Source of the DNA: Bacteroidales bacterium | GTDB taxonomy: Bacteria > Bacteroidota > Bacteroidia > Bacteroidales > F082 | Length of the DNA stretch: 51,657 nt | Direction: 5' to 3' | Assembly: GCA_036351335.1 (NCBI GenBank) | Contig: JAZBOW010000229.1 | Location: 1 to 51,657 of the forward strand | Part shown: in pieces, positions 30,234 through 47,089 of the stretch | Numbering within the stretch: the stretch's first letter is position 1 | How the letters are laid out: every line of letters starts with the position of its first letter | Position numbers and translations under genes: made by a program | Notes under the pieces: model-generated | Database searches by the model: none | Told to the model about the DNA's origin: nothing | The model's input: only the letters and a program-made list of their open reading frames with translations

Positions 30234-30791
30234 ATGTCAGTATATGTAAAATCAATTGAAATGGAAAAAGGATTGCTTTTAAAAACAGGAAACTCACTTG
30301 AACATTGGATCAAAGTGGTGCAGAAATCAGAAATTGAAAAACACAAAGCCATCATTGAGTACTTAAAAAGTGAGCATGGTTTTACACATGGTTACGCCAA
30401 TTTTGTCGCGCTTAAATCCAGGAAATCAGATGCAGCATCATTCAGCGACAAAGACTTATTGACCAATCAGTATAAAGGAAAAGAACATTTAAAACCAATT
30501 TATGAAAAATTGCTTTCAGAAATTGAAGCTTTTGGTGAAGACATTACAATAACTCCAAAAAAAGATAGTGTAAGCTTTATCCGAAAAAAGCAATTCGCTT
30601 TGATTAAACCGGCAACTAAATCAAGGGTAGATCTGGGCTTAAAAATAAAAGACAAAGCTACAACCTTCAGGCTTGAAAATTCAGGGCCCTTTGGTGCTAT
30701 GTGTACGCATCGGGTTAAACTAGCAACATTAGAGGAGGTTAACTCAGAACTTATTGAATGGCTGAAAGAAGCTTATTTTAAGGCTGATTGA
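30234..30791 (+). CDS. DUF4287/DUF5655-like protein (start uncertain: 30222, 30234 or 30261)
   Basis: The N-terminal MSVYVKSIEMEKG...HWIKVV resembles the DUF4287 start as I recall it. No catalytic motif seen. Confidence 0.45.
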   Translation: MSVYVKSIEMEKGLLLKTGNSLEHWIKVVQKSEIEKHKAIIEYLKSEHGFTHGYANFVALKSRKSDAASFSDKDLLTNQYKGKEHLKPIYEKLLSEIEAFGEDITITPKKDSVSFIRKKQFALIKPATKSRVDLGLKIKDKATTFRLENSGPFGAMCTHRVKLATLEEVNSELIEWLKEAYFKAD

Positions 30792-30832
30792 TAAAAACCC
30801 GTGGTTATGTACAATACTAAATTGCATTATAA

Positions 30833-31288
30833 ATGAAAATCAATATCGGACAAAAAGCACCTGACTTTGAACTTTTTGATCAATCGGGGAACAAATTAAA
30901 ATTGTATAATTTACTTGGAACAAAAAGCATCGTACTATTCTTTTATCCCAAAGACAACAGTCCCGGCTGTACCAGAGAAGCATGCGCATTTAGAGATAGT
31001 TATGAAATATTTCAGGAACAAGATACTGTGGTTATTGGAATTAGTTCTGATAGTGAAGATTCGCACAAAAGGTTTGCAGAAAAACAGAATCTACCCTATA
31101 CCTTATTGAGTGATAAAGAAGGTAAAGTGAGAAAATTATTTTGCGTACCGAAAACGATGGGGTTTTTGCCAGGCAGGGTAACATACATAATTGACAAGCG
31201 GGGAATAGTACGACATATATTTAAATCGCAATTGAATTTTAAAGGACATATCGAAGAAGTATTAAATGTTTTAAAATCTATGGACTAA
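30833..31288 (+). CDS. bcp: Thiol peroxidase Bcp/PrxQ-type peroxiredoxin
   Basis: 151 aa with FFYPKDNSPGCTREAC (the peroxidatic Cys motif PxxxT/SxxC). Confidence 0.9.
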   Translation: MKINIGQKAPDFELFDQSGNKLKLYNLLGTKSIVLFFYPKDNSPGCTREACAFRDSYEIFQEQDTVVIGISSDSEDSHKRFAEKQNLPYTLLSDKEGKVRKLFCVPKTMGFLPGRVTYIIDKRGIVRHIFKSQLNFKGHIEEVLNVLKSMD

Positions 31289-31312
31289 TCAATAACAACA
31301 AAATTTAAAATC

Positions 31313-31681
31313 ATGAACACAGAATTAATTAAAGGACGAAAAATTACCGGATGGATTCTTGCCGGACTACTTACATCCCTGTTCCTTTTCAGTGTAATGG
31401 GGAAATTCTCCATGCCTGAAATGGCAAATAATTTCAATAAATGGGGATTGGGTGACTGGATCACAATAATTGCAATTGGTGAAGCTATATCTGCACTCCT
31501 GTTTTTATTTCCCAAAACAAATATTTTCGGGGTACTTCTTTTGAGTGCGCACATGGGTGGCGCGATTGTTATACACATGAGCAACGGCGAACCTTTTATA
31601 GTACAAACGGTAATTTTGATTCTTGTTTGGGTAACAGGTTTTGTTCGTAATCCCGAACTGCTGGCTAAGTTTAGGAGCTAG
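31313..31681 (+). CDS. DoxX-like small integral membrane protein
   Basis: 122 aa with four predicted TM helices. Size and pattern fit the DoxX-like family. Confidence 0.55.
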   Translation: MNTELIKGRKITGWILAGLLTSLFLFSVMGKFSMPEMANNFNKWGLGDWITIIAIGEAISALLFLFPKTNIFGVLLLSAHMGGAIVIHMSNGEPFIVQTVILILVWVTGFVRNPELLAKFRS

Positions 31682-31795
31682 CAACAATTGGAATCCAATA
31701 TTGACAATAAAAGAACATACAAAACAATCGAACAAATAATTTGGGCTAGAAGATGAATTAATAACAATTTCCCAAATGATAAATACAAGGCAATA

Positions 31796-32698
31796 ATGAA
31801 CCGATCGTCTTTTATAAAACTATTTGGAATGGGTGCACTGGGAGTAGGAACATTTGGTTTGTTAGGGTTGGCAAAAGCATTGGATGGGACAAAGCAAACA
31901 GGGCGAAAACTGCCTGTTTTGTTTAGTTCACATGGAAATCCTATGGATATTCCGGTTCCTCATTATGGAAATCCTTTTAACACATATCTGGGAGATTTAG
32001 GAAAGGAACTTAGAAAGAAATATGATGTTAAAGCTATTTTAGTCGTATCGGCTCATTGGTGTACTAGAGGAACTTTTGTACACATTTCTCAATCACCGAA
32101 GACGATATATGATTATTACGGCTTTCCTGACAACTATTATACAATTCAATATTCTGCACCAGGTTCTCCTGAATTAGCAAAGCAAATAGCAGGTGCTGTT
32201 GGCGAAATACATACAACATCAGATTGGGGCTTTGACCATGGAAATTGGCCAATGTTGATGCACCTCTATCCTAATGCTGATGTTCCTGTCTTTCAACTTA
32301 GCATTGATTATTACAAACCGCCACAATATCATTATGATTTAGCAATTCAATTAAAAAAATATAGAGAACATGGCGTGCTGATTATTGGAAGCGGAGCATT
32401 GATTCATAATTTAAAATTAGCTATGGCTAAAATGCAAACAGGAGATACTGAAATATATGGCTGGGAAGTAGAATTTGACGATTGGATTCTAAAAAGAATT
32501 GAGGACAGGGATATAAAAGCTTTGATTGATTACGAAAAAATTAAATTAGGAAAATTAGCTGCTCCAACACCTGACCATTATGTGCCGCTTATCTATTCAA
32601 TGGCATTGGCTGATGACAAGGATAAAATCCGTCAAACTTACATAGATATGTTACCAGGCTTTAGCAATAGAAGCTTAATTATTGAACCCCAAAATTAA
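31796..32698 (+). CDS. LigB-family extradiol ring-cleavage dioxygenase (4,5-DOPA dioxygenase/YgiD-like) with export signal
   Basis: 300 aa with LPVLFSSHGNPMD, VVSAHW and GSGALIHNL motifs. The N-terminal NRSSFIKLFGMGALGVG.. is signal-like. Confidence 0.8.
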   Translation: MNRSSFIKLFGMGALGVGTFGLLGLAKALDGTKQTGRKLPVLFSSHGNPMDIPVPHYGNPFNTYLGDLGKELRKKYDVKAILVVSAHWCTRGTFVHISQSPKTIYDYYGFPDNYYTIQYSAPGSPELAKQIAGAVGEIHTTSDWGFDHGNWPMLMHLYPNADVPVFQLSIDYYKPPQYHYDLAIQLKKYREHGVLIIGSGALIHNLKLAMAKMQTGDTEIYGWEVEFDDWILKRIEDRDIKALIDYEKIKLGKLAAPTPDHYVPLIYSMALADDKDKIRQTYIDMLPGFSNRSLIIEPQN

Positions 32699-32700
32699 AG

Positions 32701-33159
32701 ATGAAAATGAAAATAGAAGATGAAATAAAAGGACGGTTCAGAAACGAATACCATAAGGGATTGATTAATCTTACTTATACTGTTAAACAAGTGAGTTACG
32801 ATTTTCATCAGGCACTCAAAAAGCATGGGTTAACCGAACAACAGTACAATGTACTCAAGGTACTCAGAGGTTTTCGTACAGAAGGCCCTTGCTCAATCGG
32901 TTTTCTGAAAGACCGGATGCTGGATAAAAAGTCGGATGTAAGCCGAATTGTGGACAAGTTATTTGCTAAAAAGCTGATCGTACGAAAGGAAAATCTAACA
33001 GACCGAAGACAGAAAGATCTTGAAATTACCAATAAAGGGTTAAGTTTATTGACCCAGATGGACAATTGTGAGAAAATCGTGGATACTTTATTAAGTAATC
33101 TATCTTTGGATGAGGTAAAACAATTAAACAGGCTTTTAGATAAAATAAGGGGTAATTAA
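32701..33159 (+). CDS. MarR family transcriptional regulator
   Basis: 152 aa with a winged HTH, LTEQQYNVLKVLRG...CSIGFLKDRMLDKKSDVSRIVDKLFAKKLIVRKEN. It starts 2 nt after the dioxygenase stop. Confidence 0.85.
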   Translation: MKMKIEDEIKGRFRNEYHKGLINLTYTVKQVSYDFHQALKKHGLTEQQYNVLKVLRGFRTEGPCSIGFLKDRMLDKKSDVSRIVDKLFAKKLIVRKENLTDRRQKDLEITNKGLSLLTQMDNCEKIVDTLLSNLSLDEVKQLNRLLDKIRGN

Positions 33160-33197
33160 ATAAAAAAACTTTTTTAAAGATAACAGGTCTCGGAATT

Positions 33198-33638
33198 TTA
33201 GGAATTCGGAAATGAATGCTTCAATACCTTCGCTAACATGCTTACTATTTTGTTCCAATATTCTTTCATTTCGTCTCTTTGTTTAGTATTCAGTAATTTC
33301 TCTTGGTGAAAACTAATTGTCGTTTTTCGTCTGTTTCCAATTATCCGAACTTGAACCGTAGAAATGTTCTTCCAGTTTTTCTTTTTCCAACTCAACCGAA
33401 TATGTGAAAATGGTTTAAATACCCGGACTAATCCCTCAACACCTTCTTTTATTTTAAAATGTTTATCAATCTCAAGTTCATTTTCAATTTCACCAAGCCA
33501 AATTTTTATGCCTTGTTCTGAAAACATAAAATCCCATACGCTTTCCAACGGGATAGGGAATGTTTTCCTCAGCCCAAATTGGAAACCTACGTTTTTTGTT
33601 TGTCCAATTATATTGTCATTTTTAAACTTGCTATTCAT
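33198..33638 (-). CDS. SRPBCC (START/AHSA1-like) ligand-binding domain protein
   Basis: 146 aa. Size and pattern (VWDFMFSEQGIKIWLG..., LSWKKKNW) fit the family. It overlaps the upstream thioesterase gene by 8 nt. Confidence 0.5.
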   Translation of the reverse strand: MNSKFKNDNIIGQTKNVGFQFGLRKTFPIPLESVWDFMFSEQGIKIWLGEIENELEIDKHFKIKEGVEGLVRVFKPFSHIRLSWKKKNWKNISTVQVRIIGNRRKTTISFHQEKLLNTKQRDEMKEYWNKIVSMLAKVLKHSFPNS

Positions 33639-34071
33639 TCATTCTTATAAAATTATAAACCCCTTTACCTTCTGAAATCAATTCATCGTCATTTTCCTGA
33701 TAAGCTTTCATCCTGGTCACAAGTATTGTTTTTCCCAACCTTACTATTTCCCCTTCTACAATAATTGTAGATGCTTCCGCCGGTTTAAGATAATCTATTC
33801 TTAAATCTATTGTCACCATTTTATCTTTAAGCGATGTAAAATATGTTCCCCCGGCAATCCCGCCCACAGAGTCCATTATGGTAGCTATTATTCCGCCATG
33901 CCATCTTCGTCTTCTAAAATCCCCAATCACTTCTTCCCTGAATGGAACCTTTACTTTTGCATATCCTTTCCTAATTTCTAAAAGCTCAACCCCTAAAAAT
34001 TTATGAATTGGGATAAGTTCTTCAATAGTTGTTTTGATTAACTTTTCTTCCGTTTTCATGTTTTTTTTCAC
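33631..34071 (-). CDS. PaaI/hotdog-fold acyl-CoA (or acyl-carrier) thioesterase
   Basis: 146 aa with WHGGIIATIMDSVGG, typical of PaaI-type thioesterases. Confidence 0.75.
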   Translation of the reverse strand: MKKNMKTEEKLIKTTIEELIPIHKFLGVELLEIRKGYAKVKVPFREEVIGDFRRRRWHGGIIATIMDSVGGIAGGTYFTSLKDKMVTIDLRIDYLKPAEASTIIVEGEIVRLGKTILVTRMKAYQENDDELISEGKGVYNFIRMNE

Positions 34072-34108
34072 TATTTTATTAAAGATAACTTCTTTATAAA
34101 TTTTTTCT

Positions 34109-34726
34109 TCATTCTTTTTTAAGGTTATTAGTAACTTTCTTTTTGAGCTGTCCTTCAGAAATTATTTTACATGTAAATTGCTCCATAACCATTTTGATCG
34201 GGAAATCTGACTGATTAATAATATATTGAATACAAATCCCCATTAAGGAAGATGTAAACAATTTAACTTCAATATCCGGGTTTTCATATCCTTTTTCCTT
34301 GAAAAATCCAATGAGTATATTTTCGTATTCAATATAAATAGTGCTGCTTGCTAAATATTTTACGGCAGTCTCATACAATATTTGCTGTGATAACAGAAGG
34401 TTTAAGAGCTTCCAATGAGTTTGGTCGTTGTCCAAAGACGGTAAAATTACTTTGTTAATAAAGTAAACTAAATTATCATCGCTGAATTCCTTATCCACAT
34501 TTTGAGGAAGATAATTTAACAGGGATTCAATACTTTCAATTATAATTTCTTCGAATAGTGTTTCTTTACTTGAATAATAATGGTAAAACAATCCTTTTGA
34601 GATATTGGCTTTTTTTGAAATGTCAGCAATAGATGTTTGGAAGTATCCATTATCCCCAAAAAGGACTAAAGCAGATTTATGGATCTCCTTTTTATTAATC
34701 CTTTTGTTTTTCTCTCTTTTTGTCAT
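34109..34726 (-). CDS. TetR/AcrR family transcriptional regulator
   Basis: HTH LFGDNGYFQTSIADISKKANISKGLFYHYYSSKETLF. Confidence 0.8.
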   Translation of the reverse strand: MTKREKNKRINKKEIHKSALVLFGDNGYFQTSIADISKKANISKGLFYHYYSSKETLFEEIIIESIESLLNYLPQNVDKEFSDDNLVYFINKVILPSLDNDQTHWKLLNLLLSQQILYETAVKYLASSTIYIEYENILIGFFKEKGYENPDIEVKLFTSSLMGICIQYIINQSDFPIKMVMEQFTCKIISEGQLKKKVTNNLKKE

Positions 34727-34733
34727 AATATTT

Positions 34734-36095
34734 CTAAAAACTATACTTAACCTTTAAGAACCCCATATCATAGCCTGTGAGGTTGGTAAACAAGTTGTCA
34801 CCTTTTCCGGTATATACATAGGCACCTAATTGTATTTCGGCATTGTCAATAGGCTTGTATCTGATGGAAGGTGCCCAGATAACAGCATAATTATTGCTGA
34901 CGTCTTTCCAGTCTGAAACAATAAATCCACCGGTTAAGGGTTCAATCTTCAATTTATCTTCAAAGAAAGCTTTTTCATACCCAAACATAAAATAATCATT
35001 CTGGTTGCCTCTGCCACGTTCATGGATAAATCCGTGCAGGTATTGAAAATTAATATACGAACCTTCACGAAAGGTGTAATCCATTCCTAAAACAAATTTG
35101 ACATACAACTCATTATCTACGATAAGGCTGTCCATATCCGGGAGTGGTTGTCCGCCAATGTCATTGGTCATAACAACTTTACTATCGGGTAAAAACCCCG
35201 CTGCCTCGCCCCATACACCTACACTACCTATGCTGCCTGCGAAATCAGCACCGAAAATACTTTGTCTGTAAAAACCTGTAGTTGCTTTAATATCAACTCC
35301 TCCTTCAAGATTGACGGGAGTAATACTATTGTGTATAGGTACAGCCAATCCATCAAAGCCATAAACATAGCTAATCGAAAAATCGAAACCACCTATGAAG
35401 GCTTTAAAGCGCAAACCTGTTGTAGAGCTTTGTGTCAGGCCGAACACAGGCATAACTAAACTATCCGACATAGAAGCAGCGTAGAAAGGAGGCGGCAACT
35501 CTATTGTTGGTGTAAAAGCAACAGCAAAAACACCAATGGGCATAGTAGCCGGTTGAAAGAAAGGTAGATAAACTGCCTGTAGTGAAAAATCACTTGAAAA
35601 ATAATAATTGAGGTTAATTCCTATCGAACCGTTATGTCGCCCAAAGTCCATCACATCTTCAAGGTCATACGGGTTCAGATTATCCGTAGGATTTAGCTTA
35701 TCAGCAGTACCCCATGCAATACGTTGCTTACCAATCTTAACATCCAGGTTTTTCATAAACAACCCGTAAAATTCCAAGTAGGCTTCTCTGATATAAAGAT
35801 TATAAGGATCAACTATGTCCTTGTTATAAAGTTCTGAGGCAGAAGCGATATTTGGTAAACCGATATTCCTTAACCAAACATCAGTATAAAACTTTGCACG
35901 ACCCTTAAATTTTGCCTCAAGTTGTAAATCCAGCCGATTTTCGTTCCATGCCCATAATCCTTCATCCTGCAACAAAAAACGTTGATCGCTTAGAAAATTA
36001 CCACTGAATTTCACTTTGTTTTCCTGTGCTTTTACAAAACCTGAGCTAATTATAAACAGGAATATTAATATTTGGGTTATTCTTATTCTCTTCAT
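34734..36095 (-). CDS. Outer-membrane beta-barrel protein, family unknown
   Basis: 453 aa with the signal peptide MKRIRITQILIFLFIISSGFVKAQ, alternating aromatic/glycine-rich strands, and the C-terminal ...VKYSF. Confidence 0.6.
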   Translation of the reverse strand: MKRIRITQILIFLFIISSGFVKAQENKVKFSGNFLSDQRFLLQDEGLWAWNENRLDLQLEAKFKGRAKFYTDVWLRNIGLPNIASASELYNKDIVDPYNLYIREAYLEFYGLFMKNLDVKIGKQRIAWGTADKLNPTDNLNPYDLEDVMDFGRHNGSIGINLNYYFSSDFSLQAVYLPFFQPATMPIGVFAVAFTPTIELPPPFYAASMSDSLVMPVFGLTQSSTTGLRFKAFIGGFDFSISYVYGFDGLAVPIHNSITPVNLEGGVDIKATTGFYRQSIFGADFAGSIGSVGVWGEAAGFLPDSKVVMTNDIGGQPLPDMDSLIVDNELYVKFVLGMDYTFREGSYINFQYLHGFIHERGRGNQNDYFMFGYEKAFFEDKLKIEPLTGGFIVSDWKDVSNNYAVIWAPSIRYKPIDNAEIQLGAYVYTGKGDNLFTNLTGYDMGFLKVKYSF

Positions 36096-36152
36096 AACTC
36101 TATTTTATTAAGATTAATTTCTTTAACGATTTTCCTGATAATTCATAATTAT

Positions 36153-36782
36153 TTAGAACAGATAAAGCTGCTGTCCTTCTTTTATAAATTCTATTACCTC
36201 TTGTTGTTTTGAAACTTTTTCAAATTTTGTAGGATGTATTACACCACCAAGCATTATATATTTCACTTTCTTTCCTTCCGATTTATAAAACATGTTGATA
36301 AGTGTTTCAACACCAAATCTTGCGTGTTTCATTCTATCAATAATGGGTAGTATATCTTGTTTTAATACAGAACGCTCGCCTGTAAATGATTTGAACGAAT
36401 TAACACTGTAGATAATCAATGTTTCTGTTGGTTGGCCAAGAACCATATCTGCTTCATTGTTAATTATCGGCGTCAATAATTTCGCAAGATGTACTTCTTT
36501 CAGATTAACCAAATCTGCACCTATAAATGTAATTATATCACCTGTTGCATTTTCCACACCGGTTGCCATGGCAAAACCTTTTCCTTTGTTTTTCGGGAAA
36601 TGAATTGCCTTTATTTCTATCGTTTGTTTTAAGCTGTCGATGATATTACCGGTCTGATCAACCGAGCCATCGTTGACAACAATCGTTTCATTAATTAAAG
36701 GGGATTTACTTACTGAACGGAGTACATTTTCTAATGTCTGTTCCTCATTAAATGCACATATAATTGCACTTACCTTTTTCAT
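36153..36782 (-). CDS. Family 2 glycosyltransferase (short, soluble type)
   Basis: 209 aa with VSAIICAFNEEQTLENVL ... VVNDGSVDQT ... GKGFAM and a DxD-like GAD. Confidence 0.8.
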   Translation of the reverse strand: MKKVSAIICAFNEEQTLENVLRSVSKSPLINETIVVNDGSVDQTGNIIDSLKQTIEIKAIHFPKNKGKGFAMATGVENATGDIITFIGADLVNLKEVHLAKLLTPIINNEADMVLGQPTETLIIYSVNSFKSFTGERSVLKQDILPIIDRMKHARFGVETLINMFYKSEGKKVKYIMLGGVIHPTKFEKVSKQQEVIEFIKEGQQLYLF

Positions 36783-37669
36783 TGTCTTTTTCTATTTTCA
36801 TTAAAGTTTTTTATACATTCGGAAGTAACGACTTTTCCTATCTCTACAACCTCTTTAGCTTTATGGAAATCAAAAGTACCACAGGCATACCTGGAAATAT
36901 CAATAAGCAAATCAGGCGGGTTCAATTCAAGGGTCAGTTTCGATATTTGCGACAACATCAGGCTTGTTGTGTCAGTCATTAATTGAAAATATCCGATGCT
37001 GTCATTTTTATTTGCCGGAATAAGTTGTGCCAGTTTTTCCCTGAAACTTTTTAACCGGCCATTGGTCAACTGGTCGATTTTGCCGGGATTCTTGTCAATT
37101 TTCCCAATAGTGTACATAGGAATCTGCGCATTCACATTAACTGCAACAAGTATATCACCTTGCACCCTTTTTACTTGGTTAACCGGAACTGGATTTAAAA
37201 CACCACCGTCAACAAAATGCAAATCATCTATTTTGGTGGGCGTAAGTACAAATGGGATAGATATAGATGCCCTGATGGCTTCCCATAAATTTCCAGATGA
37301 AAACACTTTTTCTTTTTTATTCCTTATATCAGTAGCTACAGCAGTAAAAGGAATGGGTAGGTCTTCAATCTTCTGGTTGGGAATAAATTTCTTAATCTCC
37401 TTTAATACTTTGTCAGCTTTAATTATACCATTCGTGCTCAAAGTGAAGTCAACTAAGCTAAAAACATCCATCCTGTCCAAATTACACAACCACTCTTCAT
37501 ATTCGTCCAGTTTGCCCGAAGCATAAACACCGCCAATCAAAGCACCCATTGACGAACCTGAAATGGAAGAAATCTCAAAACCCTGACTAAGAAGTTCTCT
37601 GATTACCCCAATGTGTGCACTACCACGAGCCCCACCACTACCAAGTACCAATGCTACTTTCTGTTTCAT
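36779..37669 (-). CDS. Patatin-like phospholipase
   Basis: 296 aa with the oxyanion GSGGARGSAHIG, the nucleophile elbow GSSMGA, and the catalytic Asp context VDGGV. Confidence 0.9.
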   Translation of the reverse strand: MKQKVALVLGSGGARGSAHIGVIRELLSQGFEISSISGSSMGALIGGVYASGKLDEYEEWLCNLDRMDVFSLVDFTLSTNGIIKADKVLKEIKKFIPNQKIEDLPIPFTAVATDIRNKKEKVFSSGNLWEAIRASISIPFVLTPTKIDDLHFVDGGVLNPVPVNQVKRVQGDILVAVNVNAQIPMYTIGKIDKNPGKIDQLTNGRLKSFREKLAQLIPANKNDSIGYFQLMTDTTSLMLSQISKLTLELNPPDLLIDISRYACGTFDFHKAKEVVEIGKVVTSECIKNFNENRKRQ

Positions 37670-37678
37670 TTTAACTAC

Positions 37679-38422
37679 TTACTGTTTTAGCTTTCTAACT
37701 GTGAATTCATCATCTGAAAGGCCCTGGTCGAATACCACTTCACTAACAATCATTTTAGTAGCATGATTCTTCTTCAAATCTTTCATTAATATTTCTTTCG
37801 CGCTCCAATAATTTCCTACTTTTTCGTACTGATAAGTTGCATCTTTCATCTTATTTCCTCCCTTATCAAAATACTCAGCAGTTATCGGATAAAAATCTTG
37901 ATTATTGATTTTAATCACCTGTTTTGAATAATCAGTTTTCAATCCGGGCTTGGGTACTAACTTTAGCGTAAATGTTTCGTTATCCTGATCAATTAGCTCC
38001 GGATCATATTTTGAGCTGAACAGTTTGGCTTCCATATCATCATACGAAAAATCGGTTCCTGCAAATTTCTGGTTCTTTACATGTGAGGCTATTCTTCTTT
38101 CTTTACCAAATGCTGGCATATAGATGTACATTACATCTTTTGGTAACGATAAAAAAGCAATGCCTGCCTGTGATGCAGGGCTTGTAAAACGAAATAAACG
38201 CATATCATTTCCTTTCTGTATTACATTTGCTTCGCGCTTACTTTCTTCTCCGTTTTTATCAATTAGAATAATAGTGACTTTGTTTTGCTGATCTTTTGCC
38301 GAATAAAGGACTTCGTCAAGTTTTTGAAGGATCTCATTGGCATCTTGTGCGTGTACATGATTGATAGTGCCTGTCATTACTATTAATGCACATGCTAAAA
38401 CTGATAATTTTAAAATTTTCAT
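37679..38422 (-). CDS. LolA-like outer-membrane lipoprotein-sorting family protein
   Basis: 247 aa with a signal peptide. AGIAFLS, MYIYMPAFGKERRIAS and FAGTDFSYDDM resemble the LolA_like family usually encoded next to COG1033/MMPL exporters. Confidence 0.7.
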   Translation of the reverse strand: MKILKLSVLACALIVMTGTINHVHAQDANEILQKLDEVLYSAKDQQNKVTIILIDKNGEESKREANVIQKGNDMRLFRFTSPASQAGIAFLSLPKDVMYIYMPAFGKERRIASHVKNQKFAGTDFSYDDMEAKLFSSKYDPELIDQDNETFTLKLVPKPGLKTDYSKQVIKINNQDFYPITAEYFDKGGNKMKDATYQYEKVGNYWSAKEILMKDLKKNHATKMIVSEVVFDQGLSDDEFTVRKLKQ

Positions 38423-38450
38423 TTTATTACATTTTTAATTTAATTGAATA

Positions 38451-40712
38451 TTATATATTTTTTAATTTTCGTTTTCTGTTTGCCAGAATTAATATTACAG
38501 GCAATAAGGTTAAAGCCCCAAGTCCTGAACCAATCATACTTAGTGCTACCAACAGCCCAAAGTTCTGTAATGGAACCAGTTCGGAAAATAACAGCACAAG
38601 AAAACCTGCTGCAACTGAAACCACATTTATAATAATTGCTTTGCCACTTACCATTATTGTTTCTTCAAGTGCCTTTTCAACATCGCCGCCGTTCCCATTA
38701 AATGAGTGATTAAAATGTGTGATTACGTGTATTGAATAATCAATACCAATACCCAAGGCTATACTTGCAACTAAAACTGTTGCAATATCAAGCGGGATGC
38801 CTGTTAAGCCCATAAACCCGAATAGAATGATGATTGTGGCTATTATTGGTATTGTAGCATAAATTCCTTTTGCAACAGAACGTAACAATAATCCCACAAT
38901 AATAAGCACCATAACTATGGCTATCAGTAAACTACTAATCTGGCTGTCGATTAAACTGGAATCCAATCTTACATAAACCGCAGGCATACCTGTCACCTCT
39001 ATTTTACATTCTTCAGTCGAATTTTCTACTACAAATGTTTCCATAGCATTTTCAAAATCTTTCATTAATTTACTGTCGGCAGAAGCAAATTTCGATTGTA
39101 TAATAGCTTTGTCAAATTTTTTTGTAACCAATTGCTCCATAATATCTTGTCCCTCTAATAAAAACCAGAGGTTCACAATTTTGTCTTTATCATCAGGTAT
39201 CTTCTTTCCTTCGCCCATTACGTCACTCATTTCTTCAATAAGGTCGGCAACCGATTGTGTTTTGTCTATACCAGGAATAGTTTCCATATAATCCTGAGTC
39301 TTTTTTATCGTTTCTAATACTTCAGGACTCTGAATATCTCCTTTAAATACAACATATACAGGTAAAGAACCGCCAAATTTTTCCTGCATTATGTCTTCGG
39401 TTACCCGGGTAGGATTACCCTTCTTGAAATAATCTGCCATATTTACACTTCTTTGTATCATAAAGACTCCGCTGATAGTAATGAGAAGGAGTAATGACCA
39501 TATTATTAAAGCATATTTAGGATGTTTAAACATTATATTTTTCAGGGGCCGTAAAATATTGTTTGAAAGAAAACCTTCACCCTTTGTATCATCGCTTTCT
39601 AATCTGTTAACGCTTTTGTACATTGAGAATGCAGAAATTAATGCCGGAACAAAGAAAACTGATAAGAGTAAGGCGAAAAACACACCAAGGGCAGTGAAAA
39701 TACCAAAGTCTTGTATCATTGTAAGGTAAGCTCCAAAAACAAATGATACAAACCCTATTACAGTTGTAACTGCGGCCAAAATAATAGGAGTTATTATATA
39801 TGCCAATGCTATTTGTAACGCTTTTTTGCGATCTTTCTCAATGCATTGATTAATCCTGTTTAAAACATGAATCGTATAAGCACTGCCTACAGCCAGTATA
39901 ATAATCGGAATAATGTTTGAGATCATTGTAATTTCGTATCCAAACCAAGTCATTATTCCCAGCGTCCATATAACAGATATTGCAGCTGTTAGCAATGGCA
40001 AAACAACCCCCCGAATTGTACGAAAACTAATAAAGAGGATAATTGCTATCAGTAGAAATACGATTGGGATTAATCTTACAATATCAGACATTATCAGGTC
40101 AGAAACATCGTTCATCATCATTGGCAAGCCTCCATAATATAGTTTCTCGGGCAAATTAAGATTTGTGATTTTCTCTTTGATATCATAAGCTAATTGTTGT
40201 TTGTCAATATCATCGAGCATTGTAAACATGATTAGGGTTGAAGTCCCGTCTTCTGAAACAATTGAACCTTTGTACATCTCTTTTGAAAAAACCCGATGTT
40301 TTAAGCTATCCAATTCCTGTTGCGTATCAGGCATGTCGTATTCATCAACCAGCTTACCTATTTCAATTCCCCATTCACTTCCTTTAATATCAATAACATC
40401 AGTAAGACTTGTTATTGTAGAAATGCCTTTTGTATATTTTAATATATCGGTAATTTGTTTTACATGCTCAATTACTTCCTTTGTGAAAATATCATCGGTT
40501 TCAAGGACAATCATTCCCAACTCATTCCCGCCAAATTCTTTACCTATATCTTTATATAACAAGGCAGCCGGGTCATCATTGGGTAAAGAACTTATTATAT
40601 CGGCATTGATTTTTATATCTTTAAGCTGATAACCAAGATATGCGGTTAATACCGTAACAATAATTATTATCGGCCATTTCAATTTTATTATACTTTCAGA
40701 TAATCTTTTCAT
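38451..40712 (-). CDS. MMPL/RND-superfamily exporter (COG1033 type)
   Basis: 753 aa with two 6-TM bundles, each preceded by a soluble loop. This is the typical size and architecture of HpnN/MMPL-like lipid exporters. Confidence 0.85.
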   Translation of the reverse strand: MKRLSESIIKLKWPIIIIVTVLTAYLGYQLKDIKINADIISSLPNDDPAALLYKDIGKEFGGNELGMIVLETDDIFTKEVIEHVKQITDILKYTKGISTITSLTDVIDIKGSEWGIEIGKLVDEYDMPDTQQELDSLKHRVFSKEMYKGSIVSEDGTSTLIMFTMLDDIDKQQLAYDIKEKITNLNLPEKLYYGGLPMMMNDVSDLIMSDIVRLIPIVFLLIAIILFISFRTIRGVVLPLLTAAISVIWTLGIMTWFGYEITMISNIIPIIILAVGSAYTIHVLNRINQCIEKDRKKALQIALAYIITPIILAAVTTVIGFVSFVFGAYLTMIQDFGIFTALGVFFALLLSVFFVPALISAFSMYKSVNRLESDDTKGEGFLSNNILRPLKNIMFKHPKYALIIWSLLLLITISGVFMIQRSVNMADYFKKGNPTRVTEDIMQEKFGGSLPVYVVFKGDIQSPEVLETIKKTQDYMETIPGIDKTQSVADLIEEMSDVMGEGKKIPDDKDKIVNLWFLLEGQDIMEQLVTKKFDKAIIQSKFASADSKLMKDFENAMETFVVENSTEECKIEVTGMPAVYVRLDSSLIDSQISSLLIAIVMVLIIVGLLLRSVAKGIYATIPIIATIIILFGFMGLTGIPLDIATVLVASIALGIGIDYSIHVITHFNHSFNGNGGDVEKALEETIMVSGKAIIINVVSVAAGFLVLLFSELVPLQNFGLLVALSMIGSGLGALTLLPVILILANRKRKLKNI

Positions 40713-40769
40713 ACGTTATTTCAAATTTGTTTCTACTACTCTGGATTTTAATCATATAATGTTATTTTC

Positions 40770-41321
40770 TTATTTAACACCTACAAAAATGAACACAGGC
40801 AGTATGCTTATTAATATGACTTTTATGCGTGATTCTGAAAACCTTTCTTTAATTAGATTATAATTTAGCCAGGAATATTGATAAGTAATAAATTTCCCCT
40901 TTTCTTTAAGCAAAGTATAAGACCTGGAAATAATCCTTCTTCTTTTTCTTCTATCAAGAAAAGTTAGGGGTATCGTTGAAATGATATAGTCTGTTTGTTC
41001 AATTTTATATCTGTTTTTCAAAATCATTTTTGCATTTTCAGCATCTGAATTAATTATGATTAACCGCTTATCATTGATTTTGACTAATTCATGAATAAAA
41101 TTTTTATTGGTTTCAAATACAAAAAGAGCGGCATCTTCTCTCATTTGGCTAAGGATATGTCTTGTTATTTCTCCTTTACCCGGACCATACTCCACTATCA
41201 ACTTGGCATTGTCAAAATCTATTTTATTTATCATATTTTTTGCAACACGAATAGATGTAGATGTTATCGCTCCAACATTCTTATCTTTTACTAAACCGTT
41301 TACTAATATTTTTTCATCCAT
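40770..41321 (-). CDS. Class I SAM-dependent methyltransferase, phospholipid N-methyltransferase-like (COG3963 type)
   Basis: 183 aa with GAITSTSIRVAKNM.. (PSS-like start), the SAM motif I IVEYGPGKGEIT, and later DYIISTIPL and GKFITYQY. Confidence 0.6.
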   Translation of the reverse strand: MDEKILVNGLVKDKNVGAITSTSIRVAKNMINKIDFDNAKLIVEYGPGKGEITRHILSQMREDAALFVFETNKNFIHELVKINDKRLIIINSDAENAKMILKNRYKIEQTDYIISTIPLTFLDRRKRRRIISRSYTLLKEKGKFITYQYSWLNYNLIKERFSESRIKVILISILPVFIFVGVK

Positions 41322-41352
41322 TACTTTACTTTCATTATATTTTGATAAATTT

Positions 41353-41904
41353 TTAGCTAAACCTTTTATCTAAAATGAAATCCTTCGGATATTTTGCATT
41401 TACATCTTTGTACAAATTATTTACTTCTCTCATTGTTTCTTTCATATCGCTTGGATCTCTAATTACTCCTTTAATTCCCACTTCTTTATTTTTGTAATCC
41501 ATATAACCAACAACTATAGGAACATTCGCCTTTGTTGACATATAATAGAAGCCCTTTTTCCAATGAGGAGTTTTAGCCATATGCCCCTCGGGTGATAATA
41601 CTATATGTAACTCATTGCTATTATTAAATAATTCAATAATATGATTTACAAACTCCTTATTTTTAAATACTGGTATTGAACCAAAAGCCATAAAAAAATA
41701 TTTTATCGGGAATTTGAAAAATTCCTTTTTTGACAAAAACTTATAATTAATTCCTGTGTACATCAGATATAGCTTACCATATAAGCCATCCAAATAACTT
41801 GTATGCGGTGCAAATATGACAATGCTCTTTTTGACATCAGGAAACTCATCCTTTATTTTCCAGCCCAAAACTATTGTAAGGATAAATTCAGAAATAGCTT
41901 TCAT
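41353..41904 (-). CDS. Lysophospholipid/glycerol-phosphate acyltransferase (PlsC/LPLAT family)
   Basis: 183 aa with the HX4D motif FAPHTSYLDG and the motif III VLSPEGH. Confidence 0.75.
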   Translation of the reverse strand: MKAISEFILTIVLGWKIKDEFPDVKKSIVIFAPHTSYLDGLYGKLYLMYTGINYKFLSKKEFFKFPIKYFFMAFGSIPVFKNKEFVNHIIELFNNSNELHIVLSPEGHMAKTPHWKKGFYYMSTKANVPIVVGYMDYKNKEVGIKGVIRDPSDMKETMREVNNLYKDVNAKYPKDFILDKRFS

Positions 41905-41959
41905 TTTAAATTATTATTTGAACTATTATCGTTTTATAGTCAGTTAAATGAAAAAAAAA

Positions 41960-42727
41960 TTATTTTGTCAACACATAAAACACATACTCATATTCTCGTG
42001 CCAAGAATTTATTGTAAGTTGGTGTACCTTCTGTTCCAGCAAAATTTTTACTTAAATACTGAAGAAACTTTGGCATGAGTTTTTTTATCAATTTATCTCT
42101 GCTTGGTGTTGCTAATGTTAAAGCTTTAACAACATTATAAGTGATGTTTTTATCTTTAACTAACTGTAAATTTGAATTTTTCAATTGTGTTTTTAGTTTT
42201 TCAAGTTCTGTTTCACTCCCAAAATCAGTAAAAAGAAAAAAACCGCCTGGTTTCAAAACACGATATACCTCATATAAGAACGTATCCATATGAGAATAGC
42301 GGTGTGCAGACTCAACACTTATTTCGATATCAAATGACTGATCTTGAAAGCTCAAATCTTGTGCGTTTTCCTGCAAAAAATTGATGCTTTCAATTGAATA
42401 ATTTTTATTGCAAAATTCAATAGCTTTTTTACTCAAATCAACCCCGGTTGCTGATCTTGGCAATAAATAACGACTTATATATGATAAACCACCTCCGCGT
42501 CCACACCCTACTTCTAAAACATCTTTCCCCTTAATATCTGCACCAGATGCAACTAAATTATAAAGCTGTATTGAGTATCTGTCTTTTTCATCATTTTTAT
42601 CAAGTTTTATTCTATGGTTATCATTCCAATAACCATAGTTCATAAAAGTGACCTCAGCATTTTTATCAATTCTACTTATATACCAGTACCAAGTTCTAAA
42701 AAAGGTGTTTTTCAATCTTTTTTTCAT
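41960..42727 (-). CDS. Class I SAM-dependent methyltransferase; resembles lipid O-methyltransferases of the mycobacterial phthiotriol-dimycocerosate methyltransferase type (from memory)
   Basis: 255 aa with VLEVGCGRGGGLSYISRYL, TGVDLS, FDIEISVESAHRY, VLKPGGFF and the C-terminal ...YVLTK. Confidence 0.75.
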   Translation of the reverse strand: MKKRLKNTFFRTWYWYISRIDKNAEVTFMNYGYWNDNHRIKLDKNDEKDRYSIQLYNLVASGADIKGKDVLEVGCGRGGGLSYISRYLLPRSATGVDLSKKAIEFCNKNYSIESINFLQENAQDLSFQDQSFDIEISVESAHRYSHMDTFLYEVYRVLKPGGFFLFTDFGSETELEKLKTQLKNSNLQLVKDKNITYNVVKALTLATPSRDKLIKKLMPKFLQYLSKNFAGTEGTPTYNKFLAREYEYVFYVLTK

Positions 42728-42807
42728 TTAATTAAATCTCTTTTTTTTCAACACTGAATATGTATTTATACTATTATTGTTTTTTAGTCAGTTCTGTTTA
42801 AAAAAAA

Positions 42808-43389
42808 TTAGTGAGCTAATCCCTTTGTGAGTATTCCCATCAAACTTTCAAAATAAGGGGAATATTTATCATATTTTTCTTGTAAATAAAATGGTATCTC
42901 AAGTCCTTTCAATACCATAATAAAAACATCTATTAAAACATCAATGTCTTCAATTTCTGCAAATTCTCCATTATGAACCCCTTCTAATATTATCTTTTTT
43001 AATTTCTCTTTTTCCCACTCATCTAACTCATTTCTTAAATCATCAATAAAATGAAAATGTTCGAAGAAGTCTGCTTTTATAGTTTCGTGATAATTAGCTG
43101 CACTGTTTAACACCTCCATTCTTTTGAGAAGATATTCCTTTAATTTTTTAGAAGTATTAAGGTTTGGTTTGTCAACAATAACTGACAATTGATTTTTAAG
43201 ATTTATTATTTCTATTGATACAACCTCTTTAAATAAATCCTCTTTACTGGAAAAATGATAGTATAATGAACCTTTAGCTTTCCTGGCAATCTTTGCAATT
43301 TCATCCATTGAAGTTTTATGAAATCCAAACCGGCTAAACAATTTAGTTGCAACAATTACTATTTTATTCCTTGTATCTTCGAAAGCCAT
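42808..43389 (-). CDS. TetR/AcrR family transcriptional regulator
   Basis: HTH LFSRFGFHKTSMDEIAKIARKAKGSLYYHFSSKEDLF. First gene of the 12-gene minus-strand block. Confidence 0.85.
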   Translation of the reverse strand: MAFEDTRNKIVIVATKLFSRFGFHKTSMDEIAKIARKAKGSLYYHFSSKEDLFKEVVSIEIINLKNQLSVIVDKPNLNTSKKLKEYLLKRMEVLNSAANYHETIKADFFEHFHFIDDLRNELDEWEKEKLKKIILEGVHNGEFAEIEDIDVLIDVFIMVLKGLEIPFYLQEKYDKYSPYFESLMGILTKGLAH

Positions 43390-43613: not shown

Positions 43614-43655
43614 TCTACCTCCTTGGACTCGAACCAAGGATCCTCTGATTAACAG
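43614..43655 (-). pseudogene. 3' fragment of a tRNA-Asn(GUU)-like gene (anticodon loop to discriminator); 5' half absent
   Basis: The minus strand reads CTGTTAA-TCAGA-GGATC-CTTGG-TTCGAGT-CCAAG-GAGGTAG-A. This is anticodon loop, stem, variable loop, a perfect T arm and the 3' acceptor strand. No D arm or complementary 5' acceptor strand lies upstream. Confidence 0.55.
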
Positions 43656-43991
43656 CCAAACTAATTACTGGAAGTTTATTAAAGGTTTAATTTTTAATTA
43701 CCATTTTAGGCTGTACTCTAACAAGTATTGAGACATATCTATCATTCAACTGCATGATAATACAATTAATACTTCATTAGAGCTATGCATGGAGGGTTAT
43801 AATTGATAACATTTAAAATTGTCAATACTGACAAAATTAAATCGAATATAAACCTTCAAAAATCAATATTTTTTAGTGTCAAACATTTTAGGTCAAAATT
43901 TATAGTGTTTTTTCATTTCTAGAAAACAAGATGCTAATAATCAGTGAAATATAAAATATACATGGTCCTGGTGGGCCCACTTAATAATCAG

Positions 43992-44345: not shown

Positions 44346-45407
44346 TTATTTTGTAGTTTTCCCTCTCCACCAGGTAGCAAGGGATGAACCGGTAATATTC
44401 ATCATGGGGCCAAATATTGCAGGGGCCAGGCTTACTGTTGTGACCTTGCCCATTTGCAGGGCTAATCCTGATGCCAACCCCCCATTTTGCATGCCGACCT
44501 CCAGGGCAATGGTACGACAATCCTTCTCTTTTAGGCGTAAAAGTTTGGCCGCAAAATAACCAAGTGAATACCCAAACATATTCTGCAAAAGACAGGCAAG
44601 AATCAACATAAACCCGACTTCAAGCAGACTGTCACGCCCGGCAGCAGTGATTACTGTAATGATAATGCCTATTCCAAGCATCGAAGTCAACGACAGTATT
44701 TTCTCCAGCAAATCTTTTCTTCCATTGGCAAAATATTTGAAAAGATATGCACCCATAATTGGCAGCAATCCAAAGATGACGGTGTCTTTTAAGAAAGCTG
44801 TTCCGAATTGTGAGAGTTCAATACCTTCTGTTGCATATCCCAGGAAGTTTTTGAGAAAAATAATAGCCATGTAGGCAGCCATCTGAATGATCATAAGCTT
44901 GCGGCTTTTTTGTCCGTTCTGGAAAAGGTTGAAAATTAGGCCGGCACAAATAGGTAAGATCACCATATTAAAAATTCCCTGCATCATATTCCAGAAATCA
45001 ATCTCAACCATTTCGCCTGCAAAAGTCTGCATCAACAGTGGTGTCATTATCGGAGAAAGTAAGGTGGCAAAAGCTGTCAATGTAACAGATAATGCGAGGT
45101 TGGCTTTTGCAAGAAACGACATCACATTGGATGCCATGCCGCTTGGTGATGATCCCACTAAGATCAGGCCGGCTGCAATTTCCGGTGGAAACTGAAAAAT
45201 GGTGGCAACTGTGATTCCCATGATGGGCATAATGGTGAACTGGCAAATAACACCTGCTATAACTCCTTTAGGCATTTTTATTACCCCTGCAAAATCATTC
45301 AGGCTCATTTGCGAACCCATCCCAAACATGATGATTTGAAGCAGGGGGACAATCAGTAGGGTGAATTGAAACTTCCCTACACCTAAAAAATATTCAGGGT
45401 AATACAT
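44346..45407 (-). CDS. Bile acid:sodium symporter (BASS/SBF) family transporter, probably missing its first TM helix
   Basis: 353 aa with the family block IVPLLQIIMFGMGSQMSLNDF..PKGVIAGVICQFTIMPIMG. Only about 20 aa precede this block, whereas I expect about 40-50. The ORF start overlaps the end of the truncated helicase ORF. Confidence 0.75.
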   Translation of the reverse strand: MYYPEYFLGVGKFQFTLLIVPLLQIIMFGMGSQMSLNDFAGVIKMPKGVIAGVICQFTIMPIMGITVATIFQFPPEIAAGLILVGSSPSGMASNVMSFLAKANLALSVTLTAFATLLSPIMTPLLMQTFAGEMVEIDFWNMMQGIFNMVILPICAGLIFNLFQNGQKSRKLMIIQMAAYMAIIFLKNFLGYATEGIELSQFGTAFLKDTVIFGLLPIMGAYLFKYFANGRKDLLEKILSLTSMLGIGIIITVITAAGRDSLLEVGFMLILACLLQNMFGYSLGYFAAKLLRLKEKDCRTIALEVGMQNGGLASGLALQMGKVTTVSLAPAIFGPMMNITGSSLATWWRGKTTK

Positions 45408-47089
45408 TGAAACAGCTACAGCAGCGAATATCCTGGCAATCGTAACCCGTTGTCATCATTCCGACTGTCACGCACACCCTGGTTTTACTTGTCCGGTAAT
45501 CAGGCAGCCACCTGGAATGTCCGTTCAGGTTGTTATTGCTAAAATTGATGGTCATTTGCTGGGCACCACTCACCAACGAAGTTACCTGCACCGCAAAATC
45601 AGAGTTGTACTTGCCCGGGTAGCGTTTTTCGGCAAAATAGTTTAAAATCTCTGTTATTTTTCGGGCATGATTCTGACTTACGCAGAAAACAAGCGACTTG
45701 CCAATCTCATTCGTAATAGGGTCCGTTAAGGCATGATCCATAAAGGCTTGTACTAATGCCAGGTTCGTCTTTCTGGAAAAGAATTTCTTTTCAAAGTCCC
45801 TGTGTACAAAAGTTTGGGTTTCTTCTTTGCCTTCTTCGGTGGTTGTTACCACATCGTAACCTTCATCGCTTAATAACTGGGTCGTGATATCGGTTCGTGC
45901 ATCAATGGCCGTCGGGTTGATCAGAAATCCATCTTTTACACCATCCAGCAATGAATATCGGTAAGTAGGGTTGCCATCTTCACAGCCGAAGGTGATATAG
46001 GTGTCCTTGAGCAAACGAATTTCCATTTCTTTCGGGTGGATAAAATCGTCCTGTGCAGCCTCAACACCTTTCAGGTAGTCTTTGGGCGTTGCCGTGAGCC
46101 CGAGTTTATATCCGTGGAAATATTCAAATACAGCCCTTGTATTGCCACCAATAGAACGGTGTGCTTCGTCGGAGATGATTAAATCAAAGTCGGTGGGGTT
46201 GAAAATATCCAGGTATTTGTCGTTTACCAGTAAACTCTGAACGGTCGAAACAACGATTTCTGCCCTATACCATTCGTTCCGTTTTTCTTTATAAATGACC
46301 GTTAGAAAATCGTTTTTCAGGTAATTTTTAAAGTTCTTGTATGCCTGATCTTCCAATTCAATTAGGTCCACCAGGAACAGCACACGCCTGGCGTTCCCCG
46401 TTCGTAAGAACAATTTAATAATGGCGGCAGATGTGAGCGTTTTACCTGTTCCGGTCGCCATTTCAAACAGAAAACGATTCTCACCATTGGCAACAGCACC
46501 CTGTATCGCCTTTACAGCATCACTCTGATAATACCGTAAAAATCGTAGTCCATTACTTTCAATAAATTGTGGTCTAATGAGTTCATTGATCCAGTCGGGG
46601 CTTTTATCGTAATTTGGTTTCTGTGTAAGGGCAATATAATCGTTATTGATTACCTCGTTAATCAGTTTGCTCTTGTCTGGTTTAAATTCTTTGAATGCCT
46701 TAAATGAATCCTGTGACGGAAATTTACTGATGATCTGCGGATTTCCTTCTTCAAGGTTCCATAAATAATGAAGATTTCCATTACTCAGTATGATGTATTG
46801 AATGCCTTCTGCCACAGCATATTTTCGGGCCTGTTCTTTAGCATTTAAAGGGTGTATACTCTCCCGCTTGGCTTCGATAAGGGCCAACGGAAAGCCATCT
46901 TCATCCAGCAGTAAATAATCAATGAATCCTTTTTGTGTTCCTTCAAAGTCATCGCCAAACCCCCTCATATACGCCTCAGTGAGCGTAATGCCTCCTTCAA
47001 GCACTACCCTTATCATCATCAAAAAACCGCCATCCTGCTTCTTCCAGTAGCTTATTGATCTTAATCCGGGCCTGGGCTTCTTTTTTCAT
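45394..47089 (-). pseudogene. HsdR-like (type I/III restriction-type) SF2 helicase, frameshifted near the 5' end and truncated at the 3' end
   Basis: The hand-translated upstream frame from the ATG at 47089 gives MKKEAQARIKINKLLEEAGWRFFDDDKGSA* (classic HSDR_N start). The main ORF continues in another frame with DYLLLDEDGFPLALIEAKRE, FEMATGTGKTLT, LIISDEAHRS and LGLTATP. It ends at ..MMTTGYDCQDI+RCCSCFNVLP*, before helicase motif VI. Confidence 0.7.

Follow-up and report, generated by a model that had tools for sequence, protein, structure and literature searches.

A TetR-headed pump, carrier, and barrel frame with exchangeable lipid-enzyme cargo on a mobile island of a Bacteroidales bacterium

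The window analyzed here is the whole 51,657-nucleotide (nt) contig JAZBOW010000229.1 of a Bacteroidales bacterium, and the element in question is a block of genes on its minus strand at positions 33198 to 43389. A preliminary description made from the sequence had read this block as a self-contained 12-gene machine for lipid tailoring and export. The unit favored by the present analysis is shorter, comprising the nine genes at 34734 to 43389, from the first TetR gene (TetR1) to an outer-membrane beta-barrel gene. The conserved part of this unit is a frame of four genes encoding a TetR repressor, an HAE3-type MMPL/RND (resistance-nodulation-division) pump, a periplasmic carrier of the PF17131 family, and a DUF1302-like barrel, and this frame is widespread and uncharacterized. 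[quoted passage not shown]

The conserved entity was deduced from a comparison of the 80 best related loci, which were searched with all 12 window proteins. Most of these loci are labeled Bacteroidales or other Bacteroidota, and the cultured carriers among them are Prolixibacter denitrificans, Petrimonas sulfuriphila, and Marinilabilia salmonicolor. Linkage of the LolA-like carrier gene was counted in the 50 loci in which the sequence ahead of the barrel gene spans 4.5 kb or more. It lay upstream of the barrel gene in 45 of these, and in four of the other five the available flank was filled to its limit by cargo genes. Complete frames, with the order TetR1, MMPL, LolA-like, and barrel and any cargo ahead of the barrel, were observed in 37 loci, with TetR1 homologues of 41 to 77% identity standing first in the frame. 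The barrel by itself gave 1,426 matches in a clustered protein collection and 1,821 representative clusters at 50% identity, and it was present in at least 394 species genomes. A more distant profile search with the barrel returned seven proteins, two of which were used for gene-context look-ups. The bare four-gene frame was found again at 26% barrel identity, and in a Treponema (25% barrel identity) the LolA-like gene adjoins the DUF1302 gene, with an MMPL gene 7 kb upstream. The Treponema LolA-like homologue gave an additional weak match to PF07044 (DUF1329), which suggests a relationship between the PF17131 and PF07044 families. From the core linkage in 45 of 50 loci, the 37 complete frames, and the recurrence at 26% identity, the conserved entity was concluded to be a regulator plus a pump-carrier-barrel trio. 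The co-conservation anticipated in the preliminary description was therefore borne out for the transport core and did not extend to a fixed set of 12 genes. Single genomes with two frames were also observed (L053 and L067 in one metagenome-assembled genome [MAG], UBA5197; L005 and L068; L008 and L020). In UBA5197 the L053 frame is bare and the L067 frame is cargo rich, a difference that suggests paralogous systems with different substrates.

The transport proteins, like all other domain calls, were assigned by profile searches against Pfam and NCBIfam-type models with curated cut-offs. The pump contains two MMPL stretches that matched PF03176 well over its cut-off, and its best NCBIfam match was the HAE3 model TIGR00921 (301.6 bits, E value of 1e-89; cut-off, 351.9). 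Residues D658, Y659, and H662 of its GIDYSIH motif were invariant in 43 orthologues, as was H282, while Y279 was found in 41 of the 43. By analogy, the invariant D, Y, and H residues are presumed to form a proton relay. The assignment of the pump as an HpnN orthologue was rejected, since it scored 120.3 against a cut-off of 751.85 with TIGR03480 and 48.1 against 1100 with NF052374. The carrier was found to be homologous to solved LolA-superfamily proteins (PDB 3bk5, 3buu, 9tp6, and 4z48). It matched PF17131 only and not DUF1329 (PF07044), and its assignment as a canonical LolA was rejected. The barrel has a signal peptide and a C-terminal YSF with an aromatic last residue. Its match to PF06980 (DUF1302) just exceeded the cut-off (23.5 versus 23.2 bits, with 48 residues aligned), and the majority of its homologues carry a precomputed PF06980 assignment. 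A barrel fold is supported by an AlphaFold2 model with about 22 predicted strands (pLDDT, 77; pTM, 0.73). No match was obtained when the PDB was searched by sequence with the barrel profile, and a Foldseek search against the PDB returned only generic 16- to 18-strand porins (OmpF, AlgE, and MOMP) at TM scores of 0.42 to 0.53 and about 10% identity, so no family could be assigned from the structure. The "unknown family" of the preliminary description is thereby replaced by a marginal DUF1302 assignment from the profile, the structure pointing to no specific relative.

The genes nested inside the frame are variable. The 37 complete frames hold from zero to six cargo genes, with none in 10 frames and one to six in the rest. 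The five cargo enzymes of the window are an O-methyltransferase, a lysophospholipid acyltransferase (LPLAT), an N-methyltransferase-like protein, a patatin-like phospholipase, and a family 2 glycosyltransferase (GT2); their frequencies are given in Table 1. The LPLAT and patatin genes are mostly side by side in the relatives. Further cargo was sought by clustering the unassigned open reading frames (ORFs) in or beside the frames and scanning the representatives with profiles, and every recurrent family that was clustered and annotated has the same orientation as the transporter genes. These families include a GlsA-like lyso-aminolipid O-acyltransferase, a short-chain dehydrogenase/reductase (SDR), a FabH-like ketoacyl synthase III (KSIII), an acyl carrier protein (ACP), and a module with serine palmitoyltransferase (SPT), the last of which scored 668.6 bits against a cut-off of 640. 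Synthase-type genes (SPT, GlsA-like, FabH-like, ACP, or GNAT) were found in or next to the frame in 27 of the 80 loci. In the window, by comparison, profile scans of the block and of the rest of the contig found no ketosynthase (KS), ketoreductase (KR), dehydratase (DH), ACP, or cyclase. This agrees with the earlier statement that the block contains none of these, and it extends that statement to the whole window. As the relatives do carry synthase genes, it is the window copy, and not the system, that lacks a backbone synthase.

The arrangement of the cargo was recurrent in part. L040 has the gene order of the window with one change, a second LPLAT gene at the place of the N-methyltransferase gene, and the set of O-methyltransferase, LPLAT, patatin, and GT2 was found in six loci (L037, L040, L047, L067, L069, and L081). 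The O-methyltransferase gene directly follows an ACP gene in L037 and L069, and in L064 it is preceded by ACP and FabH genes. In the L037 ACP (6776-7018), Thr replaces the Ser of phosphopantetheine attachment (GADTLD), while the L069 and L064 orthologues keep Ser. START proteins, whose full-length members have signal peptides, are encoded between the LolA-like and barrel genes in L026, L029, L035, and L068 and downstream of the barrel gene in L032. An equivalence between these and the SRPBCC protein of the window was rejected, since the latter has no signal peptide and the START genes lie mostly between carrier and barrel. In one Bacteroidales MAG protein of 692 amino acids (aa) (P0076), GT2 and barrel are joined in a single predicted protein; this may be a true fusion or reflect the loss of a stop codon, and in both cases it emphasizes how closely the two genes adjoin. 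An IS1595-family transposase gene was observed inside the frames of L044, L052, and L054 (at about 3800-4760), just before the module of CDP-alcohol phosphatidyltransferase, GtrA, and SPT, and its position hints at a way in which cargo modules are inserted.

The conveyor reading is supported by the linkage of the core together with cargo that would act on endogenous lipids (SPT, GlsA-like, KSIII, SDR, CDP-alcohol phosphatidyltransferase, GNAT, ACP, acyl-CoA ligase, FabK-like, and UppS), by the presence of the LPLAT-patatin pair and of GT2 in about half of the frames, and by the invariance of the pump motif, the signal peptides of carrier and barrel, the barrel model of about 22 strands, and the LolA-superfamily homology of the carrier. 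Precedents are provided by HpnN and MmpL3, which are lipid exporters of the same superfamily, and by the cofit of DUF1302, DUF1329, BNR, and COG1033 genes, which were proposed to export an envelope component. Whereas the gene content, co-conservation, nesting, and island boundaries were observed, the direction of transport, the substrate, and each enzymatic step are inferred, as follows. The patatin, the LPLAT, the OlsG/PmtA-like N-methyltransferase, the O-methyltransferase, and the GT2 would act on the cytoplasmic side. Their substrate would be a lipid with a backbone from another source within the cell, which would lose and regain acyl chains, be methylated, and perhaps be glycosylated. The pump, driven by the proton gradient, would extract the product from the inner membrane, the LolA-like protein would shield it during the periplasmic crossing, and the barrel would receive it in the outer membrane. 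Repression of the operon by TetR1 would be lifted once a lipid or acyl ligand accumulates. The OlsG/PmtA-like enzyme hints at a head group with an amine; both ornithine lipid and phosphatidylethanolamine are methylated by OlsG.

The window block itself consists of 12 minus-strand ORFs, separated by 7 to 80 nt except for two pairs that overlap by 4 and 8 nt, in accordance with the co-directional, tightly spaced genes described earlier (Table 1). Nearly all of the earlier domain calls were reproduced by the profile searches, the exceptions being the barrel and the "PaaI" thioesterase, which is a generic hotdog thioesterase scoring above the cut-off of TIGR00369 and below that of the PaaI model. 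The best curated match of the O-methyltransferase, a class I enzyme, was the model for the phthiotriol/phthiocerol dimycocerosate (PDIM) methyltransferase, followed by that for the Mtf2 fatty-acid O-methyltransferase, both below their cut-offs. The small methyltransferase matched NF041658 OlsG (62.8 bits) and NF045881 PmtA (55.5 bits) weakly, far under the cut-offs, and the patatin scored 184 bits against a cut-off of 272 with NF007623. None of the tailoring enzymes of the window copy has a signal peptide, and two have hydrophobic anchors. Sigma-70 promoter matches were not in excess (66 versus 53 ± 7 in shuffles), with a model that does not cover Bacteroidota promoters, and only three weak terminator-like sites were found, none of them at a gene end.

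The 3' end of the unit was placed by comparison with the relatives, in particular L003, the closest long one, which has about 80% nt identity over LolA-like to barrel and 69 to 82% over the rest of the frame. The two sequences are homologous from TetR1 as far as the barrel stop at 34731 and again from the crotonase gene (21308-20569), which is 83% identical in nt to L003 positions 11422-12162, immediately after the L003 barrel gene; a crotonase homologue (43%) is also next after the barrel in L013. The intervening 13.4 kb (21309-34730) is an indel relative to L003 and contains the AcrB operon and genes for YceI, peroxiredoxins, DoxX, LigB, MarR, SRPBCC, the thioesterase, and a second TetR (TetR2). 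TetR2 was found only in two identical metagenome contigs (L001 and L002) and was not found after the barrel in the 78 other loci, and no homologue of the SRPBCC protein was present in any of the 80 loci. The thioesterase has an 83% homologue downstream of the barrel in one locus, L037. The 12-gene unit was therefore rejected, its last three genes being both unconserved and inside the indel, and the unit is nine genes, with TetR2, thioesterase, and SRPBCC as later neighbors and not core. A fixed 12-gene machine could not be upheld, the two methyltransferases also being rare among complete frames, and "dual TetR control" is unsupported, since TetR2 occurs in no other species and lies in a segment absent from L003. 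The L003 cargo differs from that of the window: its O-methyltransferase gene is decayed, its N-methyltransferase gene stands at another place, and a GlsA-like gene is added. From these differences, a fast turnover of cargo is deduced.

Table 1. Features of the window and recurrent cargo of the related loci. Counts out of 37 refer to complete frames; empty cells, no value given.
Feature	Position	Strand	Occurrence in relatives	Evidence or remark
TetR1, conserved repressor-type regulator, first gene of frame	42808-43389	-		TetR_N, 58.6 bits
Lipid-type S-adenosylmethionine O-methyltransferase (cargo)	41960-42727	-	5/37	NF045823 (PDIM methyltransferase), 242 bits; NF045825 Mtf2, 219 bits
Small LPLAT/PlsC-type acyltransferase (cargo), 183 aa	41353-41904	-	22/37	PF01553, 34 bits; HX4D motif is HTSYLD
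Small N-methyltransferase-like protein (cargo), 183 aa	40770-41321	-	2/37	OlsG/PmtA-like; hydrophobic C-terminal tail
HAE3-type MMPL/RND inner-membrane transporter (core)	38451-40712	-		PF03176, 170 bits; TIGR00921, 302 bits
Periplasmic LolA-like carrier (core), 247 aa	37679-38422	-		PF17131, 166 bits; TP_0789-like; Sec signal peptide
Patatin-like phospholipase, RssA-like (cargo)	36779-37669	-	20/37	PF01734, 114 bits; GGARG, GSSMG, and DGG motifs; no signal peptide
Short soluble GT2 glycosyltransferase (cargo)	36153-36782	-	18/37, often duplicated	PF00535, 96 bits
Outer-membrane beta-barrel, divergent DUF1302 (core), 453 aa, last gene of frame	34734-36095	-		PF06980, 23.5 bits
TetR2, lineage-specific add-on outside conserved frame	34109-34726	-		TetR_N, 53.5 bits
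Hotdog (4HBT) thioesterase, occasional 3' accessory	33631-34071	-		PF03061, 53 bits; TIGR00369, 67 bits
Cytoplasmic SRPBCC (AHSA1-type) protein, not a conserved partner	33198-33638	-		PF08327, 36.7 bits; no signal peptide
Crotonase-fold (ECH) gene	20570-21328	-	Directly 3' of barrel in relatives	PF00378, 60.8 bits
Island boundary, attL-like, 3' end of tRNA-Asp	13513-13530	+		Direct repeat D1; tRNA-Asp at 13455-13530
Island boundary, attR-like, 17/18 repeat of tRNA-Asp 3' end	49892-49909	+		196 nt beyond integrase
GlsA-like lyso-aminolipid O-acyltransferase			15 loci	261.5 bits; cut-off, 260
SDR			14 loci
GNAT protein, 373 aa			11 loci
FabH-like KSIII			10 loci
Module of CDP-alcohol phosphatidyltransferase, GtrA, SPT, SDR, and GNAT			5 loci
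START proteins			5 loci	Full-length members with signal peptides
4HBT thioesterase, family different from that of the window			4 loci	Downstream of barrel in L067, L071, and L078; upstream of TetR1 in L027
ACP			3 loci
Acyl-CoA ligase			3 loci (L006, L012, L024)	3' of barrel
FabK-like enzyme			2 loci
UppS			2 loci

The block had been described as island borne, and this was confirmed by a 17/18 direct repeat of the tRNA-Asp 3' end and an adjoining tyrosine integrase gene (48455-49696) with Phage_integrase, SAM-like, and Arm-binding domains. The segment so bounded, with an integrase at one end and a tRNA 3'-end direct repeat, is a tRNA-integrated genomic island of 36.4 kb with a GC content of 0.29 to 0.38, compared to 0.39 to 0.42 in the flank. 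The absence of the 13.4-kb segment from L003 marks the island as a mosaic. Its other genes encode a VapE-like primase, YceI, peroxiredoxins, DoxX, LigB, MarR, ACR3, a truncated HsdR, and DUF3800, and it carries an AcrB/MFP/OEP efflux operon (21992-28776) with two tandem TetR genes at its head. A like operon lies directly 3' of the barrel in L015 (5700-12500) and L055 (7680-14430), which are unrelated MAG loci with 41 to 60% identity, and this may represent a repeated association of two pump systems. An AbiEii/AbiEi (DUF6088) type IV toxin-antitoxin pair is also present on the island (18560-20169). In the 956-nt gap between ACR3 and TetR1, a decayed tRNA-like sequence was observed on the minus strand (43616-43686; Rfam tRNA, 23.1 bits; threshold, 29), with intact anticodon and T arms and degraded acceptor and D arms; it may be a relic attachment site at a junction of island modules. 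The HsdR-like protein (45394-47022; 542 aa) appears truncated, as it has only the N-terminal and ResIII parts, and its gene overlaps the start of the ACR3/SBF-type transporter gene (44346-45407). The GC content of this region, 0.41 to 0.43, is above that of the rest of the island. At the other end of the window (1-8510), three large neighboring proteins each have a PPDK_N (phosphoenolpyruvate-utilizing, ATP-grasp) domain, which in one is fused to a nucleotidyltransferase domain and in another to a receiver-like domain (match below the Pfam cut-off).

The nearest characterized relatives are AmeABCD of Castellaniella defragrans and the cofit DUF1302/DUF1329/BNR/COG1033 clusters of Shewanella, Kangiella, and Pseudomonas. 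In these, the gene of an HAE3-type RND pump accompanies those of a DUF1302 protein of the outer membrane and a periplasmic member of the LolA superfamily, and the products were proposed to span the envelope. The frame has a comparable set, with HAE3 as the best-matching family of its pump and a marginal DUF1302 match of its barrel. In contrast to AmeABCD, the window carrier belongs to PF17131 (247 aa) rather than DUF1329 (about 450 aa), the barrel has 453 rather than 605 aa with a marginal PF06980 match, the frame is headed by a TetR gene with lipid enzymes nested inside, and the hosts are Bacteroidota and Spirochaetota rather than Proteobacteria. No BNR/Ycf48-like (COG4447) protein was found among the 12 window genes or the recurrent genes of the 80 loci. 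The export half of the aryl-polyene lipid (APEL) and flexirubin loci (ApeD, ApeJ, ApeK, ApeL, ApeM, ApeN, and ApeB) also resembles the window block, having a lysolipid acyltransferase, a glycosyltransferase, a methyltransferase, a thioesterase, a LolA-like protein, and an RND exporter that deliver a tailored lipid to the outer membrane. The logic of this analogy, drawn in the preliminary description, held, but the protein families did not correspond: ApeM is an APPE-family RND protein whereas the window pump is closest to HAE3, and ApeN is a DUF3261 LolB-like protein where the window has a barrel, with no DUF3261 match among the 12 window genes. Patatin and N-methyltransferase are not part of the aryl-polyene clusters. 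The polyene KS/DH/KR/ACP set is absent from the block and the whole window, and some relatives have only FabH-like KSIII, ACP, and SDR. The block is not simply the neighbor of an aryl-polyene cluster.

Other lipid transporters provided more distant comparisons. HpnN (hopanoid) and MmpL3 (trehalose monomycolate) belong to the same RND/MMPL superfamily, and both extract a specialized inner-membrane lipid and are encoded beside its biosynthetic genes. HpnN, however, works without dedicated periplasmic or outer-membrane partners, its model gave the window pump 120 bits against a cut-off of 752, and the window block contains no hopanoid or mycolate genes. The Lol pathway (LolCDE-LolA-LolB) has the same sequence of inner-membrane extractor, LolA-fold periplasmic chaperone, and outer-membrane acceptor. 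It differs in using an ABC transporter where the frame has a presumably proton-driven RND pump, in its carrier (PF17131 in the frame), and in its acceptor, which in the frame would be an integral barrel; furthermore, the cargo enzymes of the frame point to lipids and not lipoproteins.

Several observations weigh against the conveyor. Both methyltransferases match enzyme families only below the curated cut-offs. A TetR operator was sought among the inverted repeats ahead of TetR1, in the window and in four relatives, and no site common to them was found. Literature searches on the Bacteroidota frame, PF17131/TP0789, and sphingolipid MMPL proteins found nothing relevant and no experiment on any frame member. 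Ten of the 37 complete frames carry no enzyme, from which it follows that the transporter needs no local cargo and that its substrate could be general. A TetR gene at the operon head is typical of drug pumps, and the window island is rich in stress genes (AcrB-type pump, peroxiredoxins, and ACR3). AmeABCD, the only characterized system with DUF1302 and HAE3 proteins, gives monoterpene tolerance and dye efflux. The main rival, which is live though unlikely overall, is an AmeABCD-like system under TetR control that would export hydrophobic xenobiotics (solvents, terpenes, detergents, or dyes) or confer tolerance to them and whose nested enzymes would be co-regulated for membrane repair or adaptation and would not make the transported molecule. 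It draws on the Nile Red efflux by AmeABCD (HAE3, DUF1302, LolA-superfamily DUF1329, and BNR), on the enzyme-free frames, on the TetR gene at the head of every complete frame, on the twin TetRs that accompany the AcrB/MFP/OEP pump of the island, and on the AcrB-type operons directly after the barrel in L015 and L055. However, many relatives hold genes for dedicated lipid synthases (SPT, GlsA-like, and ACP with KSIII) between those of the pump, an unusual arrangement for a drug pump, the periplasmic partner has a carrier-type LolA fold and is not a membrane-fusion adaptor, and the BNR partner is absent.

Transport in the opposite direction is improbable. In such a scheme, the barrel and the LolA-like protein would capture exogenous lipids or fatty esters, which the patatin and LPLAT would hydrolyze and re-esterify into the membrane lipids of the cell. 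In its favor, mutation of DUF1302/DUF1329 genes impairs Pseudomonas putida on Tween 20 and butyl stearate, no cargo is commoner than the pair of patatin and LPLAT, and an acyl-CoA ligase gene follows the barrel in L006, L012, and L024. Against it, the characterized RND/MMPL pumps of the superfamily move their substrates outward. Moreover, a patatin without a signal peptide could not meet an external ester before uptake, and biosynthetic cargo (SPT, ACP, KSIII, and UppS) does not fit. It is more doubtful still that the 12 genes are mere neighbors on a mosaic island sharing nothing but co-orientation. The unconserved last three genes inside the 13.4-kb indel, a cargo order that differs even from that of the 80%-identical L003, and the decayed tRNA just upstream of TetR1 would be explained, but the four core genes are linked across the 80 loci, down to 25 to 26% barrel identity, and both the window order (L040, with its second LPLAT) and the O-methyltransferase, LPLAT, patatin, and GT2 set (six loci) are repeated elsewhere. 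For the nine-gene frame this explanation is largely refuted, and it remains applicable to TetR2, thioesterase, and SRPBCC alone.

The movement of specialized lipids from the inner to the outer membrane outside the Proteobacteria is largely unknown, and in a 2026 review of aminolipids, none of five transport-related words, "transporter," "RND," and "exported" among them, occurs. A pump-carrier-barrel trio that repeatedly holds sphingolipid, aminolipid, and acyl-chain genes is a concrete candidate for such a route, and the three cultured carriers are usable for genetics. Tentatively, the frame may be the long-missing dedicated route by which non-phospholipid, non-lipopolysaccharide lipids (sphingolipids, acyloxyacyl aminolipids, and glycolipids) are delivered to the outer membrane in Bacteroidota and perhaps spirochaetes. 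It would then be a modular chassis with swappable cassettes and paralogous frames, and loaded frames moving on integrative islands could transfer new surface-lipid chemistry in one step. The island-borne copy suggests that surface-lipid remodeling can be acquired horizontally as a ready-to-export package, which bears on envelope properties, host signaling lipids, and stress tolerance. If xenobiotic efflux is instead its function, the frame would represent an extensive and so far unstudied group of efflux systems for hydrophobic compounds among anaerobic Bacteroidales. The system is a predicted envelope-spanning system of HAE3 type with a distinct make-up and is most likely a lipid conveyor with exchangeable cargo.

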